From Candidatus Moraniibacteriota bacterium (lineage in GTDB: Bacteria; Patescibacteriota; Minisyncoccia; Moranbacterales; UBA2206), in contig JBAQUL010000035.1 of NCBI GenBank assembly GCA_049297495.1, forward strand, positions 21,203 through 85,202: a stretch of DNA of 64,000 bases, written 5' to 3'. Below the pieces are notes generated by a model. The model saw only the letters and a list, made by a program, of their open reading frames with translations, did not search any database and was not told where the DNA came from. Positions within the stretch are counted from its first letter, which is position 1. Each line of letters begins with the position of its first letter. Made by a program: the position numbers and the translations under genes. This document shows, piece after piece, positions 6,648-61,051 of this stretch.

Positions 6648-6654
6648 ATTATTT

Positions 6655-6797
6655 TCTCTATGAACTACGAATTAAGTTTTTCTCTACGAACTACGAATTT
6701 TTACGAATATACGAATGATTTTAGGAAAACTTTCTTAAACTCATTCCGACTTGCTATTATCGATTAGTATATTCGTACTGATTCGTAATTCGTAGAG
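6655..6797. repeat. Palindromic 'tacgaat' element: direct copies tctcta(c/t)gaactacgaatt plus inverted arms ctctacgaactacgaatttttacgaatatacgaat (6682-6716) and attcgtactgattcgtaattcgtagag (6771-6797); a second copy lies at 46929-46965
   Basis: Read directly. The right arm abuts the malic-enzyme stop codon and the left side lies in the yjbQ 5' region. Confidence 0.7.
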
Positions 6798-6798
6798 A

Positions 6799-9912: not shown

Positions 9913-10028
9913 GAATTTCAAAATCCTAATATCAAATTTCCAATCAAATCCAAAGCTCAAAGCTCAAGATATTTTTGACATTTGAATTTTTAATTTGGTT
10001 TGACATTGGAAATTTGAGTTTTGAAATT
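9913..10028. repeat. Palindromic intergenic element of the 'aatttccaat / caaatccaaagctcaaa / tttgacattggaaattt' family (solo copy)
   Basis: Left half gaatttcaaaatcctaatatcaaatttccaatcaaatccaaagctcaaagctcaag, right half tttgacattggaaatttgagttttgaaatt. Same family at 53586-53662, 54938-54987/55357-55380 and 57812-57941. Confidence 0.65.
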
Positions 10029-10072
10029 ATCTTAATTTGATTTTAATATCAACATATACGAAGATGGATTTT

Positions 10073-25271: not shown

Positions 25272-25543
25272 CCAAAGTTTTTTACATCTATATACTACAA
25301 CACATTTGGAAATTTGTCATTTTTTCTAAGCAAGCTTCGCTTCAAGCCGCCAAAAAGCCAAACCTTCTCATCTGTTGAATCTCTCGCCATCCACAGGAAT
25401 TACAAGCAAAAATATCATCAGTACAAACTTCCAAATAAAGCTTTCTTCATTATTCAAAAAGGTTACTCCTTACATAAATAGCACACCCTGTTTGAGAAAA
25501 ATTGGACAATGACCCTTTTGCTGATATAATTAATATGCGCTTA

Positions 25544-25652
25544 AACCTCCTTCGCTCCGAGAGTACTCGGAGCTACGGCGTGTCAAAGAAAAATAAATAA
25601 ACCATCACAAACCTCCTTCGCTCCAACATAACTTCGGAGCTATGGCGGTCGA
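25544..25652. repeat. Two tandem copies (25544-25582, 25609-25652) of a ~40-nt structured motif aacctccttcgctcc-[hairpin]-ggagcta(c/t)ggcg; an inverted third copy lies at 61004-61039
   Basis: Copy 1 aacctccttcgctccgagagtactcggagctacggcgtg. Copy 2 aacctccttcgctccaacataacttcggagctatggcggtcg. Copy 3 (reverse complement) aatcctccaacgtttcgagagtactcggaactacggcgtg. Confidence 0.7.
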
Positions 25653-25658
25653 AGCAAG

Positions 25659-26564
25659 ATGCAAGAAATAAAAACTGAAAAATTTAGCTGGATTGATTTT
25701 CAAGAACCTAATGCTGATGATGTCCTCCAGATTCAGAAAAGATTCAAACTCCATCCCTTAGTTGTGGAAGAATTTTCCACTCCGACTCTGCGACCCAAAG
25801 CGGCGGAATATGACAATTGTGTCTATCTTGCCATTCACATCCCCCTCTATGACAGCGAGAATAAAACTACCTACCCCGGAGAGCTCGACATCGTAATTTG
25901 CGAAAATACACTCATCACCTCTCACGACGTGGAAATATACCAGTTAACTGATTTTTTCAATGAACTGAAAAAAAGTAAAAAAAAGCGTGAGATTTATATG
26001 CAGCAAAGCCCAGGAGCACTTCTGCGCTATCTTCTTGAAATGCTCCTCGAATCCTGCTTTCCGCGCCTAGATCACATCTCCCGAAAACTAGATAATATTG
26101 AAAAGGAAATTTTTGCCCAACATGAAAAAGAAATGGTCTTTGAAATTTCCCTGGTTAAAAGAGATATTCTCAATTTTCGTCGCACCATGAAACCACAACG
26201 CAGTGTTTTTGAGTCTCTCACCCAAGAACACAAATATATCGAAAAAGAACTCAGGCCCTATTTCCAAGATCTTATTGGAACAAACATTCGCATTTGGAAT
26301 ATGCTGGAAAGCGCCAAGGAAACGATTGAGTCACTGGAGGCCACCAACAACTCCCTCCTTTCCAACCAGCTCGACATGACCATGAAAGTGCTTACGATTT
26401 TTTCCGCTGTGATGCTTCCCATGACTGTCTACTCCAATATCCTGGCTATGAGCGCCGATATCCCCTTTGGCAAAGATCCTAACGCTTTTTGGATTCATTT
26501 GAGCATCATGCTCGCGCTATCACTGATTACTATCACCGTTTTTAAGGCAAGAAAGTGGCTATAA
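25659..26564 (+). CDS. CorA-family divalent-cation transporter, divergent (GMN motif replaced by AMS)
   Basis: ~230-aa cytoplasmic domain plus two C-terminal TM helices. TM1 LTIFSAVMLPMTVYSNILAMSADIPFG aligns with the CorA LT.ist.FLPlTfiaGiYGMNF region. Confidence 0.55.
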   Translation: MQEIKTEKFSWIDFQEPNADDVLQIQKRFKLHPLVVEEFSTPTLRPKAAEYDNCVYLAIHIPLYDSENKTTYPGELDIVICENTLITSHDVEIYQLTDFFNELKKSKKKREIYMQQSPGALLRYLLEMLLESCFPRLDHISRKLDNIEKEIFAQHEKEMVFEISLVKRDILNFRRTMKPQRSVFESLTQEHKYIEKELRPYFQDLIGTNIRIWNMLESAKETIESLEATNNSLLSNQLDMTMKVLTIFSAVMLPMTVYSNILAMSADIPFGKDPNAFWIHLSIMLALSLITITVFKARKWL

Positions 26565-34799: not shown

Positions 34800-34939
34800 T
34801 GTCATCCTGAGCGTAGTTCGTACTCGAACGCAGTCGAAGGATCTGCCCACCAATACCTCGATTTTTTTAAATATAAACCAAGCTCTGGATAACGCAAAGC
34901 AGATTCTTCGACTCCGCTGCGCTACGCTCAGAATGACAG
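34800..34939. mobile_element. MITE-like 140-bp palindromic element, copy 1 (~40-bp imperfect terminal inverted repeats tgtcatcctgagcgtag... / ...ctacgctcagaatgaca)
   Basis: About 92% identical to the copy at 44924-45052. The arms are reverse complements of one another (gcagtcgaaggatctgcc vs ggcagattcttcgactc) around an AT-rich centre. Confidence 0.65.
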
Positions 34940-34979
34940 AGATTGTTTATTTTTTTCATGCAAATGCGCAAGTTTTAAT

Positions 34980-44876: not shown

Positions 44877-44923
44877 ATTATTACTCCAAAGCTCGTGTGC
44901 TCAAAATTAAATTGTCATCCTGA

Positions 44924-45052
44924 GCGAAGTCCGTACTCGGACGTAGTCGAAGGATCTGCCCGCCAATGCCTCAATTTTTATAAATATAAGATAAGCTTCA
45001 GGTAACGCAAAGCAGATTCTTCGACTCTGCTGCGCTACGCTCAGAATGACAG
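44924..45052. mobile_element. MITE-like palindromic element, copy 2 (same family as 34800-34939)
   Basis: tgtcatcctgagcgaagtccgtactcggacgtagtcgaaggatctgccc...gcagattcttcgactctgctgcgctacgctcagaatgacag. Lies in the rlmN-ogt spacer. Confidence 0.65.
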
Positions 45053-46924: not shown

Positions 46925-46928
46925 GAAT

Positions 46929-46965
46929 TCTCTACGAATTACGAATTTGTACGAATATACGAATT
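46929..46965. repeat. Second copy of the 'tacgaat' repeat (ttctctacgaattacgaatttgtacgaatatacgaatt) in the porA-porB spacer
   Basis: Near-identical to 6681-6717. Confidence 0.7.
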
Positions 46966-46971
46966 GTAATA

Positions 46972-48162
46972 TTAGGTTAAATATTTATCCTTAAACTTCC
47001 CCTCCAAAATTTTCTCGATCTGTTTTTTAAACACATCTCGTCCGCCCAGGCCATAAATGTGGGAATGTATTATGTATGATGTATTATGTATCATGCCTTT
47101 TTTTTCTTCTTCCATACTTGATACATTATACATACTACATAATACTTCTGCGTATAGCGGCGGATGTGAACCAATTGATTGCGCGCGATCCATCACGATT
47201 ATTTCTTTCACTGTAGAGACGCGATTTATCGCGTCTTTGAGCGCATCAAATGCAAACGGACGAAACAGTTCAATTTTCAAAAGTCCGACTTTTTGGCCCT
47301 TCTTCCTTAGGCCATCAATCGCATCCTTGGCCGTACCAGCAACTGATCCGATTAGCACTAAAACTTTTTGGGCATCTCCCGACTCATATTCTTCAAACAA
47401 TCCATATCCCCTTCCACTTATTTTTTTATATTCCTTGGCAATCTTCAAATATTCTTCCGCAACTTTTCCCATCGCCTCTTCTTGATCAATCTTAAACTCA
47501 AAATAGGATTCTTGGAGCGCCACCGGACCATAAGTCACTGGTTTTTCAAGGTCGAGCAATGAATGTTCGGGCTGATACTCTCCAATAAATTTTTTGACAA
47601 GTTTCGCATCCAAAATTTCCAAATTTTCCACGGAGTGCGAAGTATTAAACCCGTCCATAATCACCATCACCGGCAGTCCGACGCGCTCGGCCAGTTTCAT
47701 CCCAATAATTGTTTTGTCATAGACTTCTTGAGGATTTTCACAAAAAATTTGCACCCAGCCGGAGTCGCGACTTCCCATCACATCACTATGATCACCGTGA
47801 ATGCTTAAGGGAGCAGAAAGCGCACGAGCTGCCACAACCATCAGAATTGGCAAACGCATACCGGAAGCCACATAAAGCATTTCATGCATATAGGCGAGTC
47901 CCTGGGAGCTTGTAGCCGTTGCTGTGCGTGCTCCCGCGGCTGACGCGCCAATAGCTGCACTCATTGCGCTGTGTTCAGATTCCACTTCAATCATTTCTGT
48001 TTCCACCTCACCATCCGCCACAAACTTAGCATACGTTTCAATAATCGGCGTCTGCGGGGTAATTGGATAGATCGGCATCACGTCCGGCTCAATCTGCTTC
48101 AAGGCATACGCCGCAGCATAACCACCAGTCAATGCAAGCTGTTTTTTAGTATTAAGTATCAT
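46972..48162 (-). CDS. porA: Pyruvate/2-oxoacid:ferredoxin oxidoreductase alpha subunit
   Basis: ALTGGYAAAYALKQ N-terminus, the PFOR domain I/II pattern, and C-terminal IYGLGGRD. Contains an inverted-repeat insertion near its 3' end. Confidence 0.85.
   Translation of the reverse strand: MILNTKKQLALTGGYAAAYALKQIEPDVMPIYPITPQTPIIETYAKFVADGEVETEMIEVESEHSAMSAAIGASAAGARTATATSSQGLAYMHEMLYVASGMRLPILMVVAARALSAPLSIHGDHSDVMGSRDSGWVQIFCENPQEVYDKTIIGMKLAERVGLPVMVIMDGFNTSHSVENLEILDAKLVKKFIGEYQPEHSLLDLEKPVTYGPVALQESYFEFKIDQEEAMGKVAEEYLKIAKEYKKISGRGYGLFEEYESGDAQKVLVLIGSVAGTAKDAIDGLRKKGQKVGLLKIELFRPFAFDALKDAINRVSTVKEIIVMDRAQSIGSHPPLYAEVLCSMYNVSSMEEEKKGMIHNTSYIIHSHIYGLGGRDVFKKQIEKILEGKFKDKYLT
47065..47145. 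repeat. Inverted repeat of the 'gtattatgtat' family inside the porA coding region (arms 47065-47095 and 47114-47145, 18-nt spacer), read through in-frame as ...SSMEEEKKGMIHNTSYIIHSHIYG
   Basis: Left arm atgtattatgtatgatgtattatgtatcatg. Reverse complement of right arm gtattatgtagtatgtataatgtatcaagtat. No stop codons are introduced. Confidence 0.65.
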
Positions 48163-48580
48163 GTATTATGTATCAAGTATTAAAATTCTTAATTTTCTTT
48201 AGGCCTGTAATTAATTTGTGAACAATGATGGTTTGATTGGCAATTTTATTAAATTCTTCTTTATTTATATGTCCAATATCCCTGCCTACAATTAATTGAT
48301 TCTGTAATTCAGTAAGTGACCCATGGGCTATAGAATAAAATTGGCACTTATCCTTAGCTGTACTTCTACTAAAGCCTTCCGCAACATTAGAAGTAATAGA
48401 TATAGCTGCCCTACGCATTTGACTAACGAGTCCAAATAATTCTTCTCTAGGAAAACTCTTAGTAACTCCGTAAATCATTAAGACTAATTTATGACCTTCC
48501 TGCCAAGCATATAAATCTGTAAATGATTTTATCTTTGCCTTTTCCTCCATACATTATACATAATACTTCATACATACTAC
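48148..48580 (-). mobile_element. Putative TIR-bounded mini-cassette carrying a four-helix-bundle gene, inserted between porD and porA
   Basis: About 32-bp imperfect inverted repeats of the gtattatgtat family at both ends (48148-48185 and 48549-48580). The repeats overlap the porA start codon and the porD stop codon. The same arms occur as cargo-less palindromes at 31779-31829 and 47065-47145. Confidence 0.55.
48173..48550 (-). CDS. Four-helix-bundle protein (TIGR02436 / '23S rRNA intervening-sequence protein' / Avd-like family)
   Basis: AWQEGHKLVLMIYGVTKSFPREELFGLVSQMRRAAISITSNVAEGFSRSTAKDKCQFYSIAHGSLTELQNQL matches the family consensus. Confidence 0.75.
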   Translation of the reverse strand: MEEKAKIKSFTDLYAWQEGHKLVLMIYGVTKSFPREELFGLVSQMRRAAISITSNVAEGFSRSTAKDKCQFYSIAHGSLTELQNQLIVGRDIGHINKEEFNKIANQTIIVHKLITGLKKIKNFNT

Positions 48581-48837
48581 TTCTTCATAATAATCGCGCG
48601 AACTGGACAAACCTGCGCACAGACACCGCAACCCTTGCAAAATTCATAGTCAATATCCGCCTTATCCCGCTTATCGTTTTTATGCTTTTTCATTTCGATG
48701 CATGCATCAGGACAAAACGGCACGCAAGTCGTGCAGCCGATGCACTTATCCTTATCCACTTCCGGCTTCATATACCGCCAAGAGCCAGTCCGGGGAGATT
48801 TTTTGATGTCATGTTTTATGATTGCGCCTTTTTCCAT
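48577..48837 (-). CDS. porD: POR delta subunit: 2x[4Fe-4S] ferredoxin
   Basis: CIGCTTCVPFCP and CKGCGVCAQVCP motifs. Confidence 0.8.
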   Translation of the reverse strand: MEKGAIIKHDIKKSPRTGSWRYMKPEVDKDKCIGCTTCVPFCPDACIEMKKHKNDKRDKADIDYEFCKGCGVCAQVCPVRAIIMKK

Positions 48838-53585: not shown

Positions 53586-53662
53586 TAATTTCAAAGCTCA
53601 AATTTCCAATCAAATCCAAAATTCAAAGCTCAAAAAATTTTTGACATTAGGATTTGGAAATT
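53586..53662. repeat. Solo palindromic element of the aatttccaat family between the two permease genes
   Basis: aatttcaaagctcaaatttccaatcaaatccaaaattcaaagctcaaaaaatttttgacattaggatttggaaattc. Confidence 0.65.
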
Positions 53663-54904: not shown

Positions 54905-54946
54905 AAATTCCAAGAAACAAGATAATGTCTTTAATTTCAAAATTCT

Positions 54947-55378
54947 AATTTCCAATTTCCAATCAATTTCAAAATCAAAATGTCAAACTATTTTTTCTTA
55001 CTAATTGATGAAAATATTAGTGTTAGTTCATGAGCTTCTTGCCATAATTTTCTGCATTTTTCTTTCTTGTCTGGATTTGCGATTGCAAACATATGCAGCC
55101 AATGAGTAGTTTCTTTTGCTTCTTTCTTGCAAATACTGATTTTATGCTGAAAATCTTTTTTTGATTCAGCACAGTCAGCTTCCATATAATTAGCACCGAT
55201 ACTTGTTGCGGATCTAATTAATTGACTTATGAGTGGTCGATTTATAGTATTTTCCTGAATTGTTTTTATGAATAAAATAATTTCTCCACCAAACTTGGAA
55301 GTTCTTTCAACTAAATCATACTTTTTATCATTTGGATTTTGAATTTTGTTTGGCATTGGGAATTGGAAATTGGAAATT
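54947..55378 (-). mobile_element. Putative TIR-bounded mini-cassette carrying a four-helix-bundle gene, inserted between the ABC ATPase and permease genes
   Basis: Perfect 17-bp terminal inverted repeats aatttccaatttccaat (54947-54963) and attggaaattggaaatt (55362-55378). The right TIR overlaps the ATPase stop codon. Cargo-less relatives lie at 9913-10028, 53586-53662 and 57812-57941. Confidence 0.6.
54988..55356 (-). CDS. Four-helix-bundle protein (TIGR02436 / IVS-protein / Avd-like family), second copy, divergent from the first
   Basis: KKYDLVERTSKFGGEIILFIKTI...ISQLIRSATSIGANYMEADCAESKKDFQHKISICKKEAKETTHWLHM matches the family consensus. Confidence 0.7.
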   Translation of the reverse strand: MPNKIQNPNDKKYDLVERTSKFGGEIILFIKTIQENTINRPLISQLIRSATSIGANYMEADCAESKKDFQHKISICKKEAKETTHWLHMFAIANPDKKEKCRKLWQEAHELTLIFSSISKKK

Positions 55379-56105
55379 ATTTTAGTAGTTCATTCTCCCC
55401 CTCCGCAATCCGCCTGTTTTTGACTGGATCATCCGCAATCAATTTCCCATCCTTGACATAGAGGATTCTTTTGGCGTGTTCAGCTGTATAGGTTTCATGT
55501 GTAACCAAAATTACAGTATGCCCAGAATCATTTAGTTTCTGTAAAATTTTCATTACTTGAAGACCTGACTTTGAGTCCAGATTTCCCGTTGGCTCATCAG
55601 CAAAAATCACCTCTGGATCATTGACTAGAGCTCTTGCTATTGCCACTCGCTGTTTTTCCCCACCAGAAAGCTGATTGGAAAAATACTGCGCGCGATGCTC
55701 CATCCCCACGGCCATAAGTGCATCCATCACTTTTTTGGTATTGCTCTTATCCGGCTTTTCATCATATAGCAATGGCAATTCGACATTTTCAAACACTGTT
55801 GTGCGAGAAAGCAGATTGAAAGATTGAAACACGAAACCGATTTTCTTGTTTCTAATTTTAGCCAAAGTATCGTCGTCAAAAGAAAAAGTGTCCCGACCTT
55901 CAAAAAAATATTTCCCCTCCGTCGGCCGATCCAGAAAACCCAAAATCTGCATCAAAGTCGATTTGCCAGAACCTGATGGACCCATAATGGAAATAAATTC
56001 CCCTTTTTGAATCTCAAAAGTTGCCTCACAAAGCGCCTGCGTTTCCACGCCGTCATTAGAATAGGTCTTGCAAAGATTTTGGACTTGAATTAGGGGGTTT
56101 GACAT
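55377..56105 (-). CDS. ABC transporter ATP-binding protein (MacB/LolD type)
   Basis: Walker [10 protein letters not shown], signature [15 protein letters not shown], and Walker [12 protein letters not shown]. Confidence 0.9.
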
Positions 56106-56500: not shown

Positions 56501-57811
56501 TCAGATATCTTTTGTAAAAGTAACGACCTTGTCACCATCTTTCAAGCCAGATTTTGCCTCCACCATTCCACCGTCGCCTTCCAGCCCAGTGGTAATTTTC
56601 ACTTCTTGGACCAAATTATCATCACTCAAAACATCCACAAATTTCTCTCCATTTCTAATTTTAATGGCCCTAAGGGGAATCATAAGCACATCACTTTTTT
56701 CATTGGTCCTCACGTCAACATTAGCACTCATCCCTGGCTTCAACCTCTGATCAACCGTGGAAAGCTTCAATTTAATCCCATAATAAACTACGTCTTGGAT
56801 AACAGTTTCGGCTGGATTAATTTCAATGAGCTCTGCCTCGAATTCATCGCCAGTCGGCAACGCATCAAAAGTAACTTTGGCTTTTTGACCGAGCTTTAAT
56901 TTCACGATATCTGACTCGGGAATATTAGACTCAATAATAAAATCATCAGCAATAATCCGCGCAAAGGATTCCTTAATCACGCCGGTACCTAAAATTTCTC
57001 CCACCTTATTGTTCACTTCCACGATTGTGCCAGAAACCGGTGCTTTGAGCACGGCTTTCGAAAGATTATTAAGCGCAATCTCATAATTGGCTTTGGCGTT
57101 ATCCACCGAGGCGTTTTTGGAATTGAGCGTGAAATCTGACTGGGTCGTTTTCAATCTAGCTTTCGCCGCGTCCAAAGAATTCTCCGCCGAAGTAATCGCC
57201 AAATCGCGAGATTTTTTGGCAGTATCCAATGCTTCCTCGGCCGCTTTCTTGCTATTTAGAGCCGTAGTCAAAGTCAACTTATTGGTCTTGGTTGGGCTGT
57301 CATTATAGAAATCCAACGCGTCAGAATAATAGTCCTTGGCATTATCGAGCGCCGTCTCCGCCGCGTCAACTCTTTGTTTTTCCAACTTTTCTGTTTCATC
57401 CAAAAAATTATCAGCATTATCCACTGCCACGTCCGATTCACGGATCGCATCATTATTTGATCCAGCATCGGCCACCGCTTTATTGAGTGTTGCCTTCGCT
57501 ACTGCGACTTGACCGGATAGATTGACATTGTCAAGCATCGCGATCGAATCACCCGCTGCCACTTTATTACCTTTCTTGATAAAAACCTTGCTAATTCTTC
57601 CTCCCAACTCAAAGTTGAGAACGATCTCAGAATCATCTTTGAGATCCCCGGTCGCTGAAACAGTTTGTGATAGACTGCCTTTCTCCACCGTCGCCGTCGT
57701 ATATTCAACTTTGACCTTTTTGGACCGCGCATAGAAAAAGTAGCCTCCAGCTAAAAGCAACATTGATATAATAGCGATGGTTTTTTTGTATTTAAACATA
57801 AAATTTTTCAA
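56501..57811 (-). CDS. HlyD/MacA-family periplasmic adaptor (membrane fusion protein)
   Basis: N-terminal TM, long Ala/Asp-rich coiled coil, and biotinyl-lipoyl-like plus beta-barrel segments. The real start may be the ATG at 57799. Confidence 0.8.
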   Translation of the reverse strand: MKNFMFKYKKTIAIISMLLLAGGYFFYARSKKVKVEYTTATVEKGSLSQTVSATGDLKDDSEIVLNFELGGRISKVFIKKGNKVAAGDSIAMLDNVNLSGQVAVAKATLNKAVADAGSNNDAIRESDVAVDNADNFLDETEKLEKQRVDAAETALDNAKDYYSDALDFYNDSPTKTNKLTLTTALNSKKAAEEALDTAKKSRDLAITSAENSLDAAKARLKTTQSDFTLNSKNASVDNAKANYEIALNNLSKAVLKAPVSGTIVEVNNKVGEILGTGVIKESFARIIADDFIIESNIPESDIVKLKLGQKAKVTFDALPTGDEFEAELIEINPAETVIQDVVYYGIKLKLSTVDQRLKPGMSANVDVRTNEKSDVLMIPLRAIKIRNGEKFVDVLSDDNLVQEVKITTGLEGDGGMVEAKSGLKDGDKVVTFTKDI

Positions 57812-57941
57812 TTTCTAAATCCTAATTTCCAATGTCAAACAAAATCCAAAGCTCAAAATCCAAAATATTAATCTAGCAAAATTATTTTTGTTATTTGGAT
57901 TTTGAAATTGATTGGAAATTTGACATTAGAATTTTGAAATT
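57812..57941. repeat. Solo palindromic element of the aatttccaat family between hlyD and rnhA
   Basis: Left atttctaaatcctaatttccaatgtcaaacaaaatccaaagctcaaaatccaaaat. Right atttggattttgaaattgattggaaatttgacattagaattttgaaatt (reverse-complement related). Confidence 0.65.
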
Positions 57942-57942
57942 T

Positions 57943-58374
57943 TCATATTAATGTCTTTTGTTTGTACTGCTCATCCAGCGCTTCGTTCACCAGTGCGTCA
58001 GCAACCGTATTCTTCTCTCTAGGTATATGATAAAACTTAACTGATTTAAAATCAAGCATAAGATTCCAAATTTCAATAAAATTCTTTTGAATATATTCCT
58101 CTTTCAATTTATACTCGTGATTCAATTGTTTTACGACCAATTCCGAATCTAAACGGCATTCAATCTCATATTGTCGCGTTTTATCCTTGCCTAAGAGTTG
58201 CTTTAGTTTTTTCAGCCCACATATGAGCGCGGCGTATTCAGCAACATTATTTGTTGCGCTGCCAATGCATTCACCATATTTTTTGTCTAATGTTTCTACC
58301 CAAACACCAATTCCCGCCGGTCCGGGATTGCCCCTTGATCCACCATCAGTATAAATTACGATTTTATTTGACAT
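57943..58374 (-). CDS. rnhA: Ribonuclease HI
   Basis: VIYTDGGSRGNPGPAGIGV and the DEDD catalytic residue pattern. Confidence 0.8.
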   Translation of the reverse strand: MSNKIVIYTDGGSRGNPGPAGIGVWVETLDKKYGECIGSATNNVAEYAALICGLKKLKQLLGKDKTRQYEIECRLDSELVVKQLNHEYKLKEEYIQKNFIEIWNLMLDFKSVKFYHIPREKNTVADALVNEALDEQYKQKTLI

Positions 58375-60928: not shown

Positions 60929-61003
60929 TGTAATATCAATCCTAAAACAAGCACTGGGTTTTCTTTCATGCTAGGCGATGAAAAATAAACCGACGAGCTC
61001 GTC

Positions 61004-61039
61004 ACGCCGTAGTTCCGAGTACTCTCGAAACGTTGGAGG
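61004..61039. repeat. Third (inverted) copy of the 25544-25652 hairpin motif, upstream of the atypical response-regulator gene
   Basis: cacgccgtagttccgagtactctcgaaacgttggagg. Adjacent perfect palindrome gacgagctcgtc at 60992-61003. Confidence 0.65.
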
Positions 61040-61051
61040 ATTAGATTAAAT

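Follow-up and report, generated by a model that had tools for sequence, protein, structure and literature searches.

A TGTC-tagged and probably REPIN-like palindromic repeat in the genome of a Candidatus Moraniibacteriota bacterium

Two copies of one element between co-directional genes

The stretch of DNA analyzed here (the window) comprises 64,000 nt of a contig of a Candidatus Moraniibacteriota bacterium (JBAQUL010000035.1, positions 21,203 to 85,202, assembly GCA_049297495.1), a member of the candidate phyla radiation (CPR), and contains two copies of a 139-nt palindromic element, copy A at 34800-34938 and copy B at 44913-45051. Both are intergenic, as stated in the initial annotation of the window, and lie between co-directional genes of the minus strand, copy A following ispH and preceding the gene of an rsuA-like pseudouridine synthase, and copy B following an ogt-like gene and preceding rlmN. 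That annotation had correctly counted two copies, but the start it gave for the second (44924) falls 11 nt inside the element, and its estimate of ~92% identity has to be lowered to 88.5% (123/139). The identity is unevenly distributed, with 97.5% in the right-hand 40 nt (unit a), 91.5% in the left-hand 47 nt (unit b) and 79% in the spacer. The outer (TGTCATCCTGAGCG / CGCTCAGAATGACA) and the inner (GTCGAAGGATCTGC / GCAGATTCTTCGAC) inverted repeats reported there were both confirmed. A search of the window with 13-mers, allowing up to two mismatches, gave six matches where 0.65 were expected; four of them are the ends of the element and the other two are unrelated two-mismatch matches, and no further copy was found in the 64 kb beyond A and B. 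The parts of the two copies are as follows:

34800..34938, minus strand: copy A, 139 nt, located between the rsuA-like start (34746) and the ispH stop (34980), a head-to-head heterodimer whose minus strand reads unit a, spacer, unit b
34899..34938, minus strand: unit a of copy A, minus-strand sequence TGTCATTCTGAGCG-TAGCG-CAGCG-GAGTCGAAGAATCTGC, with TGTC tag, stem ATTCT/AGAAT (T-A type), tandem G.A and a pentamer-repeat loop
34847..34898, no strand: AT-rich, variable spacer of copy A, 52 nt between the CTGC/GCAG tails
34800..34846, plus strand: unit b of copy A, plus-strand sequence TGTCATCCTGAGCGTAG[GTTCGTACTCGAAC]GCAGTCGAAGGATCTGC, with TGTC tag, stem ATCCT/AGGAT (C-G type) and a nested mini-hairpin
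34816..34829, plus strand: mini-hairpin GTTCG-TACT-CGAAC in unit b of copy A
44913..45051, minus strand: copy B, 139 nt, located between the rlmN start (44876) and the ogt-like stop (45085), like A in architecture and orientation
45012..45051, minus strand: unit a of copy B
44960..45011, no strand: spacer of copy B, 52 nt, 79% identical to that of A
44913..44959, plus strand: unit b of copy B, with mini-hairpin GTCCGTACTCGGAC at 44929-44942

The mini-hairpin of copy B (GTCCG-TACT-CGGAC) differs from that of copy A by a compensated change from T-A to C-G. Homology between the two copies ends exactly at TGTCA...TGACA, and their 40-nt flanks match at only 15-16 of 40 positions, which is the background expected of AT-rich DNA, so that the copies are not part of a larger duplication. 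A segmental duplication of a regulatory region together with its flanks, an objection that the initial annotation had itself raised and that would suit a window with just two copies, both upstream of RNA-modification genes, is refuted by these flanks and by the many further copies at unrelated sites in other genomes.

Filled and empty sites in related genomes

Syntenic contigs of relatives (designated by L numbers) were retrieved via their RlmN homologs. Two independent Logan contigs encode IspH and RlmN proteins identical to those of the window, and both stop ~30 nt inside the element; a de Bruijn assembler breaks contigs at a repeat that is multi-copy in the sample, and such ends are thus as expected for a repeat present in multiple copies in those samples. 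In L035 (GCA_021779295.1) and L036, whose RlmN is 83% identical, both sites are empty, the gap between ispH and rsuA measuring 19 nt and that between ogt and rlmN 8 nt. L030 (RlmN 89% identical) and L135 (JAPLXG01), a Moraniibacteriota metagenome-assembled genome (MAG) from LacPavin, carry in the ispH-rsuA spacer an orthologous but diverged element, in which the unit motifs are intact and the spacer and nested hairpins differ from those of the window. A second copy in L030, ~86% identical to the window copies by BLAST, lies between a divergent pair of radical-SAM/methyltransferase genes which, in the window and in L035, directly adjoin each other, i.e., at a site that is empty there. Further copies with 86-90% identity to A and B were found at unrelated sites in other CPR metagenome contigs, and the spacers of the two window copies and of the closely related L030 copy are more alike than those of more distant genomes. 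The other objection foreseen in the initial annotation, namely that only two copies exist and show no insertion polymorphism, is contradicted by these filled and empty orthologous sites and by the copies elsewhere in relatives. With both objections removed, the element stands as a genuine interspersed repeat, subject to gain and loss.

As a separate observation, the motif AAATGCGCAAG / CTTGCGCATTT(GCATG) adjoins the element at the ispH-rsuA site in three genomes (34941-34979 in the window, and the orthologous flanks in L135 and L030). It also lies beside an apparently different copy in L102 (3466-3495), in the opposite relative orientation, and is absent from the empty ispH-rsuA site of L035.

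Some copies of other CPR genomes are located inside genes. All four elements of the short, 115-nt class (L039:1527-1641, L046:1405-1519, L101:1377-1491 and L075:2286-2400) and one of 142 nt (L042:5102-5243) are contained in long open reading frames (ORFs) and are read in one and the same frame (CHPERS...AQND or CHSERS...AQDD). The hosts are RecG (in two genomes, at the same site), a MiaB-like radical-SAM enzyme, a HypF-like carbamoyltransferase and KsgA/RsmA, and in RecG the copies account for ~37 extra residues in the alignment to the T. maritima protein (PDB 1GM5). Palindromes of this kind are reminiscent of the Rickettsia palindromic elements (RPEs) of ~100-150 bp, which Ogata and co-workers reportedly described in 2000 as tolerated in frame in conserved protein genes; the sequence and the host differ, and the two window copies are intergenic and have stop codons in the reading frames used by the in-frame copies.

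The distribution of the element extends far beyond the CPR. In pattern scans its termini and inner motifs were also detected in viral contigs of very different G+C content, where the copies lie between structural genes, and one scan of a genome collection returned at least 114 stretches, often several from one genome. Among the matches listed are Acidobacteriota, Latescibacterota, Clostridia/Oscillospiraceae, Peptoniphilus, Spirochaetaceae, Alistipes, Gemmatimonadales, Kryptoniota, Chloroflexia, Saccharibacteria and many Patescibacteria, so listed with a TGTC-tagged unit that is nearly identical across about ten phyla and present in multiple copies. Head-to-head dimers prevail (97 among the at least 114 genome loci), next to 35 tail-to-tail and 28 head-to-tail arrangements, and solo units and tandem arrays of single units occur as well. 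Arrays of up to ~12-19 units (L060, L063, L086, L099, L104, L118 from a Peptoniphilus sp. MAG, and L026, a viral contig) consist either of repeated doublets of ~170-190 nt or of single units in tandem ~130 nt apart, have ordinary flanking genes and are reminiscent of the arrays of Neisseria intergenic mosaic elements (NIMEs). BLAST against a curated phage collection gave no match, against curated plasmids only partial matches to the arms in two Hymenobacter plasmids, and a search of a representative library with the stop-free frame of the window element three weak matches only. An apparent multi-copy "gene" of 494 aa beside the units of Latescibacteria was discarded, its similarity being confined to the translated repeat.

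Hairpin units and covariation within them

Thirty-two doublets were extracted from CPR loci, and 15 sequences were aligned for the comparison of units and spacers. All 32 follow one design, a heterodimer of units a and b with the TGTC tags pointing outward, in which unit a reads TGTCATTCTGAGCG-NAGCG-NAGCG-NAGTCGAAGAATCTGC and unit b (inverted) TGTCATCCTGAGCGNAG-[mini-hairpin]-GNAGTCGAAGGATCTGC. Both units, a of the T-A type with its pentamer-repeat loop and b of the C-G type with its mini-hairpin loop, are nearly invariant across genomes, whereas the spacers are free in sequence and fall into two length classes of 31-33 or 55-57 nt; their self-complementarity was not significant (mean z -0.47 and -0.01) and no conserved structure was found in them. 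The tag is TGTC in both window copies and in 31 of the 32 CPR copies, and CGTC in the remaining one as well as in Peptoniphilus. In an alignment of 139 units its G is at least 90% conserved and its TC is invariant, the latter being fixed by the search pattern. The general form of the unit is TGTC + A-T-N-C-T + GA + G...C + GA + A-G-N'-A-T + C-T-G, i.e., a stem of five Watson-Crick pairs followed by a tandem G.A/A.G and a G-C pair (plus a C-G pair in simple units), which amounts to 8-9 positions. The simplest units (ATCCT-GA-GC-GAA-GC-GA-AGGAT) have a GAA loop, those of the window have loops of 14-22 nt made of pentamer repeats or a nested hairpin, and of the tail CTG(C) the C is conserved, and CCA is not.

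Covariation was assessed on 139 distinct units from many genomes that had not been selected by search patterns (non-seed). Within a unit N, the sole variable position of TCAT[N]CTGAG, covaries with N', its counterpart in GAAG[N']ATC: the pair is C-G in 85 units, T-A in 35, G-C in 14 and T-G in one, with four other combinations, and the 49 double changes were reached by none of 500 shuffles. Independent switches are seen in the L030 ortholog of unit a, which is C-G where the window has T-A, and in unit b of L046, which is T-A, and L108 and L132 represent single-change intermediates. In the long hairpin that the two units could form with each other, a T.G and an A/C mismatch are conserved at the N/N' positions in all 15 aligned copies. 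Pairing therefore acts within the unit and not between units, and what the initial annotation described as terminal inverted repeats (TIRs) are in fact a pair of autonomous hairpin units, and each has a covarying stem to itself. Of the analyses proposed there, folding gave a result far beyond that of shuffled sequences, and covariation was seen within the unit and not between the units, where the mismatches are kept. Since wobble is almost absent at the covarying pair (1 of 139), recognition as DNA rather than as RNA is indicated.

The mini-hairpin of unit b varies by compensated substitutions and paired insertions (GTTCG..CGAAC, GTCCG..CGGAC, GTCCTG..CAGGAC), and some genomes have unrelated hairpins in its place. 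Extra small palindromes, such as CCTGCCTGCCGGTAGGCAGG or CCGCGTGCCGCC..GGTGGAGCA, were also noticed nested in units a or b within GTCGAAG^GATC (L030:20338-20358, L140, L147, L091, L135, L047), which suggests the insertion of hairpins into hairpins or a modular exchange between repeat families.

These results bear on the proposal of the initial annotation that the element is a miniature inverted-repeat transposable element (MITE), in the classical sense an internally deleted insertion sequence (IS) of the DDE type whose TIRs are recognized in trans and which moves by cut-and-paste, leaving target-site duplications (TSDs). Its length, terminal inverted repeats of ~14 nt, AT-rich center, intergenic location, multiple copies and presence/absence polymorphism would all be in keeping with this, and as the description of a small, non-autonomous interspersed repeat the proposal holds. 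But in the 32 CPR copies, oriented from a to b, neither a TSD or other direct repeat nor a conserved target was found, the only bias in the flanks being a T immediately 5' of unit a (position -1) in 23 of them. A MITE would moreover call for a transposase gene that has TGTCATYCTGAGCG on either side along with a TSD; near ~150 loci neither a transposase nor any longer element sharing these ends was found. Solo units, tail-to-tail pairs and single-unit arrays are not predicted by a TIR model, the covariation is found inside each "TIR" instead of between the two, and a unit that is near-identical across about ten phyla is unlike IS-derived MITEs. Among bacterial MITEs, Correia, Nezha, RUP and ERIC elements resemble the element in size, terminal inverted repeats, stable transcribed hairpin and intergenic insertion, but they have TSDs (a TA duplication in Correia) and, where known, a cognate DDE transposase. 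We therefore disfavor a classical MITE as very unlikely; the label "MITE-like" is right in spirit, for a small non-autonomous mobile repeat, and wrong in kind.

A long structured RNA had been offered as the alternative to a MITE. The hairpin could have been selected in cis between cistrons, as a terminator, an RNase III site or a block to 3'-exonucleases in the expression of ispH/rsuA and ogt/rlmN. The element indeed folds far better than chance, as RNA with -51.6 kcal/mol on the plus strand (z = -7.1) and -64.9 kcal/mol on the minus strand (z = -8.0), which is the transcribed one, and as DNA with -33.6 kcal/mol (z = -6.7). In addition, both window copies lie within co-directional gene pairs in the same orientation, copy A is followed on the sense strand by TTTTTTTGTTTTTT (a U-run), promoter-like hexamers are found between copy B and rlmN (the only such site of copy A being upstream of it and overlapping the ispH stop), and the ispH-rsuA copy is kept in three genomes. 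We nevertheless regard this explanation as unlikely. The a-to-b orientation splits 8:5 with respect to flanking tandem genes, a divergent promoter spacer (L030) holds a copy and other copies are read in frame within ORFs, neither a conserved nor a significant structure was found in the spacer, a U-G wobble occupies the covarying position just once, and the TGTC-tagged unit is also found in viral contigs and arrays. No Rfam family corresponds to the element: in a search against Rfam 15, with gathering scores and permissive E-values, only two tRNAs of the window reached the gathering score, and the weak matches over the element (WsnRNA46 and plant miRNA precursors, 16-22 bits) are of the kind that any long hairpin gives. 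A hammerhead-like reading of CUGA...CGAA was dropped on inspection, as the core does not have the G8-A9 positions.

The element could also serve its host as a site at the DNA level, for gyrase, a nucleoid protein or a recombinase, being kept by selection and spread by gene conversion, and the binding of chromosomal proteins to such motifs has been proposed for the bacterial interspersed mosaic elements (BIMEs) of E. coli. Almost invariant units next to drifting spacers, two fixed spacer classes that suggest a geometric constraint, persistence at an orthologous site and the lack of a transposase in the window and among CPR neighbors would be compatible with such a role. Selection could hardly explain, however, the lineage-specific sites and the in-frame insertions in conserved enzymes, nor would it the presence between structural genes of viral contigs, and the covariation needs intrastrand pairing, which goes beyond a recognition sequence in duplex DNA. 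A host site of this kind thus appears improbable to us.

Relation to REP repeats and possible mobilization

The best description of the element is that of a further member, in a CPR bacterium, of the CGTC/TGTC-tagged kind of repetitive extragenic palindromic (REP) sequences. The text of the paper defining the CGTC-tagged REP superfamily (Di Nocera, De Gregorio & Rocco 2013, BMC Genomics 14:522; PMC3733652) describes an unpaired terminal CGTC tag, "changed to TGTC in many repeats" and with a CCTC variant, a stem of 8-9 bp with complementary A and T at the first and second positions, a loop that measures 4-5 nt, or differs from this in some species, and a short tail, unpaired and in most cases CCA. 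According to the same text the units form mostly head-to-head dimers with the tags outside and spacers of 20-100 bp, heterodimers are frequent, clusters occur in some genomes, copies are found in genes, notably those of replication and repair, and members are known from five phyla and include the Neisseria dRS3/NIME repeats and the Rickettsia repeats RPE-4 and RPE-6. As far as this description goes, the element shares with the superfamily the TGTC/CGTC tag, the stem of 8-9 positions starting with A/T, head-to-head heterodimers, the range of spacers, arrays, intragenic copies, the occurrence in several phyla and, at the loci searched, the lack of a transposase. Its tail likewise begins with C but reads CTG instead of CCA, and its loops, short (GAA) in simple units, are long in those of the window. 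It differs in having a tandem G.A in the stem and in its hosts, as Patescibacteria/CPR, Latescibacteria, Acidobacteria, Clostridia and others, along with viral contigs, go beyond the phyla named there. The comparison is one with the text description of the superfamily, whose published consensus families are CGTC-1 to CGTC-4 (PMC3733652). Literature text searches gave no relevant match to the DNA motif of the element (the text of PMC3733652 included), to its translated peptides or to MITEs in combination with Patescibacteria.

A second point of reference is given by the REP doublets forming hairpins (REPINs) and BIMEs that are mobilized by REP-associated tyrosine transposases (RAYT, TnpA_REP) of the HUH-Y1 type (Bertels & Rainey 2011; Nunvar 2010; Ton-Hoang 2012; cited from PMC6006769). 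Classical REPs, as outlined in that article, are species-specific and carry a GTAG (GT[AG]G) tag 5' of the foot of the hairpin, and each family has its own single-copy RAYT gene flanked by REPs (PMC6006769). With this system, to the extent it is described there, the element has in common the inverted doublet that forms a long hairpin and is the replicating unit, the lack of TSDs, intergenic locations often between co-directional genes and amplification within lineages; it differs by the TGTC/CGTC tag, by the conservation of the unit across phyla and in that no RAYT was found in the window or among the commonest families near CPR copies. We therefore interpret each of the two loci as one REPIN-like, non-autonomous mobile repeat, a head-to-head heterodimer of CGTC/TGTC-tagged REP-type hairpin units, and give this reading a probability of roughly 65%. 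The element works like a REPIN in that the doublet is the amplified unit and no TSD is produced.

The orientation of the doublets may hold a clue to how they move. With respect to the majority gene strand the a-to-b direction is distributed 13:9, which like the ratio for flanking tandem genes is not significant, but it follows the local GC skew in 22:10 cases and in 21:5 where |skew| exceeds 0.05 (p = 0.0025), counts that include a few orthologous, non-independent sites and in which GC skew is confounded with gene direction, and the confounding tells against the REPIN-like interpretation as well. The link to the skew is suggestive of a strand-specific, replication-linked process at the fork. 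Every 8-kb bin of the window shows a negative GC skew (-0.10 to -0.24), and almost all of its genes are encoded by the minus strand. This places the window within one replichore in which the minus strand leads, and it is on this strand that both copies read from a to b. Taken together, the covarying pair without wobble, the conserved mismatch of the heterodimer, the lack of TSDs and the GC-skew bias point to the recognition of a hairpin in single-stranded DNA.

Copies come and go at orthologous sites, with neither a target duplication nor a sequence-specific target, and some lie in frame in essential genes. As a mechanism we envisage that the unit hairpins would form in single-stranded DNA at the replication fork and would there be recognized and cut by a trans-acting, hairpin-specific enzyme. 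This enzyme could be an HUH/Y1 nuclease, as RAYT is for classical REPs, or a different one, and it would excise the doublet and re-insert it without duplication, while the mismatches of the heterodimer would keep the long palindrome imperfect. Read-through transcripts of operon-borne copies, such as both of those in the window, would hold a hairpin of -52 to -65 kcal/mol that could terminate, process or stabilize the mRNA, as a side effect and not as the reason for the element; an influence of this long hairpin on the two operons at the RNA level is plausible, though of secondary rank.

Several observations weigh against a REPIN-like mobile repeat. Three diverged genomes still carry the copy between ispH and rsuA, its unit sequences intact, and this persistence could reflect host-level selection or homogenization instead of recent mobility. 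A metagenome scan revealed no population-level empty site of copy B, and neither an excision nor an insertion event was seen directly. Single units fold weakly when alone (-2.7 to -7.2 kcal/mol, z not significant) and in a free strand the long inter-unit hairpin is thermodynamically favored, so that the unit hairpin is probably of consequence in a protein-bound state or where just one of the two units is single-stranded. No mobilizing gene emerged either. The window has no transposase among the genes flanking the copies and 20 small or unassigned ORFs, there was no recurrent ORF family within 250-400 nt of the units at ~150 loci, and a Pfam analysis of 150 proteins encoded beside CPR copies gave no enriched nuclease or transposase among the 25 commonest families, a listing in which a single-copy mobilizer gene could be hidden. 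Likewise no RAYT (Y1 HUH, PF01797) was seen in the window or, among these 25 families, near the CPR copies. For the CGTC REPs, too, no associated transposase is reported in the text of Di Nocera et al. (PMC3733652). Nor was there enrichment of a GIY-YIG or other small nuclease family that might flank such units, be it among the families listed for the 150 CPR neighbor proteins, in the clustering of ORFs or among the small ORFs of the window.

It is possible, if doubtful, that the TGTC unit ranks among the most widely spread orphan mobile hairpins of bacteria, moved not by a dedicated RAYT-like transposase but by a conserved host or phage enzyme that acts on single-stranded hairpins with tandem G.A pairs at the replication fork in organisms as different as CPR, Latescibacteria, Acidobacteria, Clostridia, Bacteroidota, Spirochaetes, Gemmatimonadota, Chloroflexota and the sources of viral contigs. 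If true, this would account for the failure to link any transposase to CGTC REPs, and the enzyme could best be identified in the tiny genomes of CPR, where close relatives differ in having a site filled or empty. The question of what mobilizes this very widespread orphan REP family deserves to be followed, and minimal CPR genomes with element-bearing and element-free relatives make it approachable by phylogenetic profiling. The REPIN-like interpretation would extend the CGTC/TGTC-tagged REP superfamily to Patescibacteria, to several other poorly studied phyla and to viral contigs. For annotation it matters that the element breaks assemblies, creates spurious ORFs (CHPERS.../...AQND and VILS... 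peptides) and can insert in frame into real genes.

Other repeats of the window belong to different families. Two small genes for proteins of the 23S_rRNA_IVP four-helix-bundle family (PF05635), at 48173-48550 (minus strand, E = 2e-35) and 54988-55356 (minus strand, E = 7e-15), are each bracketed by long, periodic AT-rich inverted repeats of the GTATTATGTATGATG... and AAATTTCCAATC... types, which also occur elsewhere in the window. These genes and their repeats look like a second, unrelated kind of small selfish cassette. The AT-rich inverted repeats are located at:

9914-10037
47050-47150
48148-48204
48549-48597
53586-53662
54932-55015
55322-55387
57795-57957

A different palindromic family (AAACCTCCTTCGCTCCGAGAGTACTCGGAGCTACGGCG...), whose center CGAGTACTCG resembles the mini-hairpin of unit b, is represented by two tandem copies (25542-25582 and 25605-25655) upstream of the gene at 25659 and by one inverted copy at 61003-61043. 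Of the short repeat TCTCTACGAAYTACGAATTTNTACGAATATACGAAT, both direct and inverted copies are present, at two intergenic sites that lie far apart (6652-6716 and 6763-6798, and 46926-46964). Finally, positions 1-2110 contain repeats of 300 nt (90% identical), 131 nt and 72 nt, in tandem and dispersed, within a very long minus-strand ORF that runs off the start of the window and probably encodes a repetitive surface protein.

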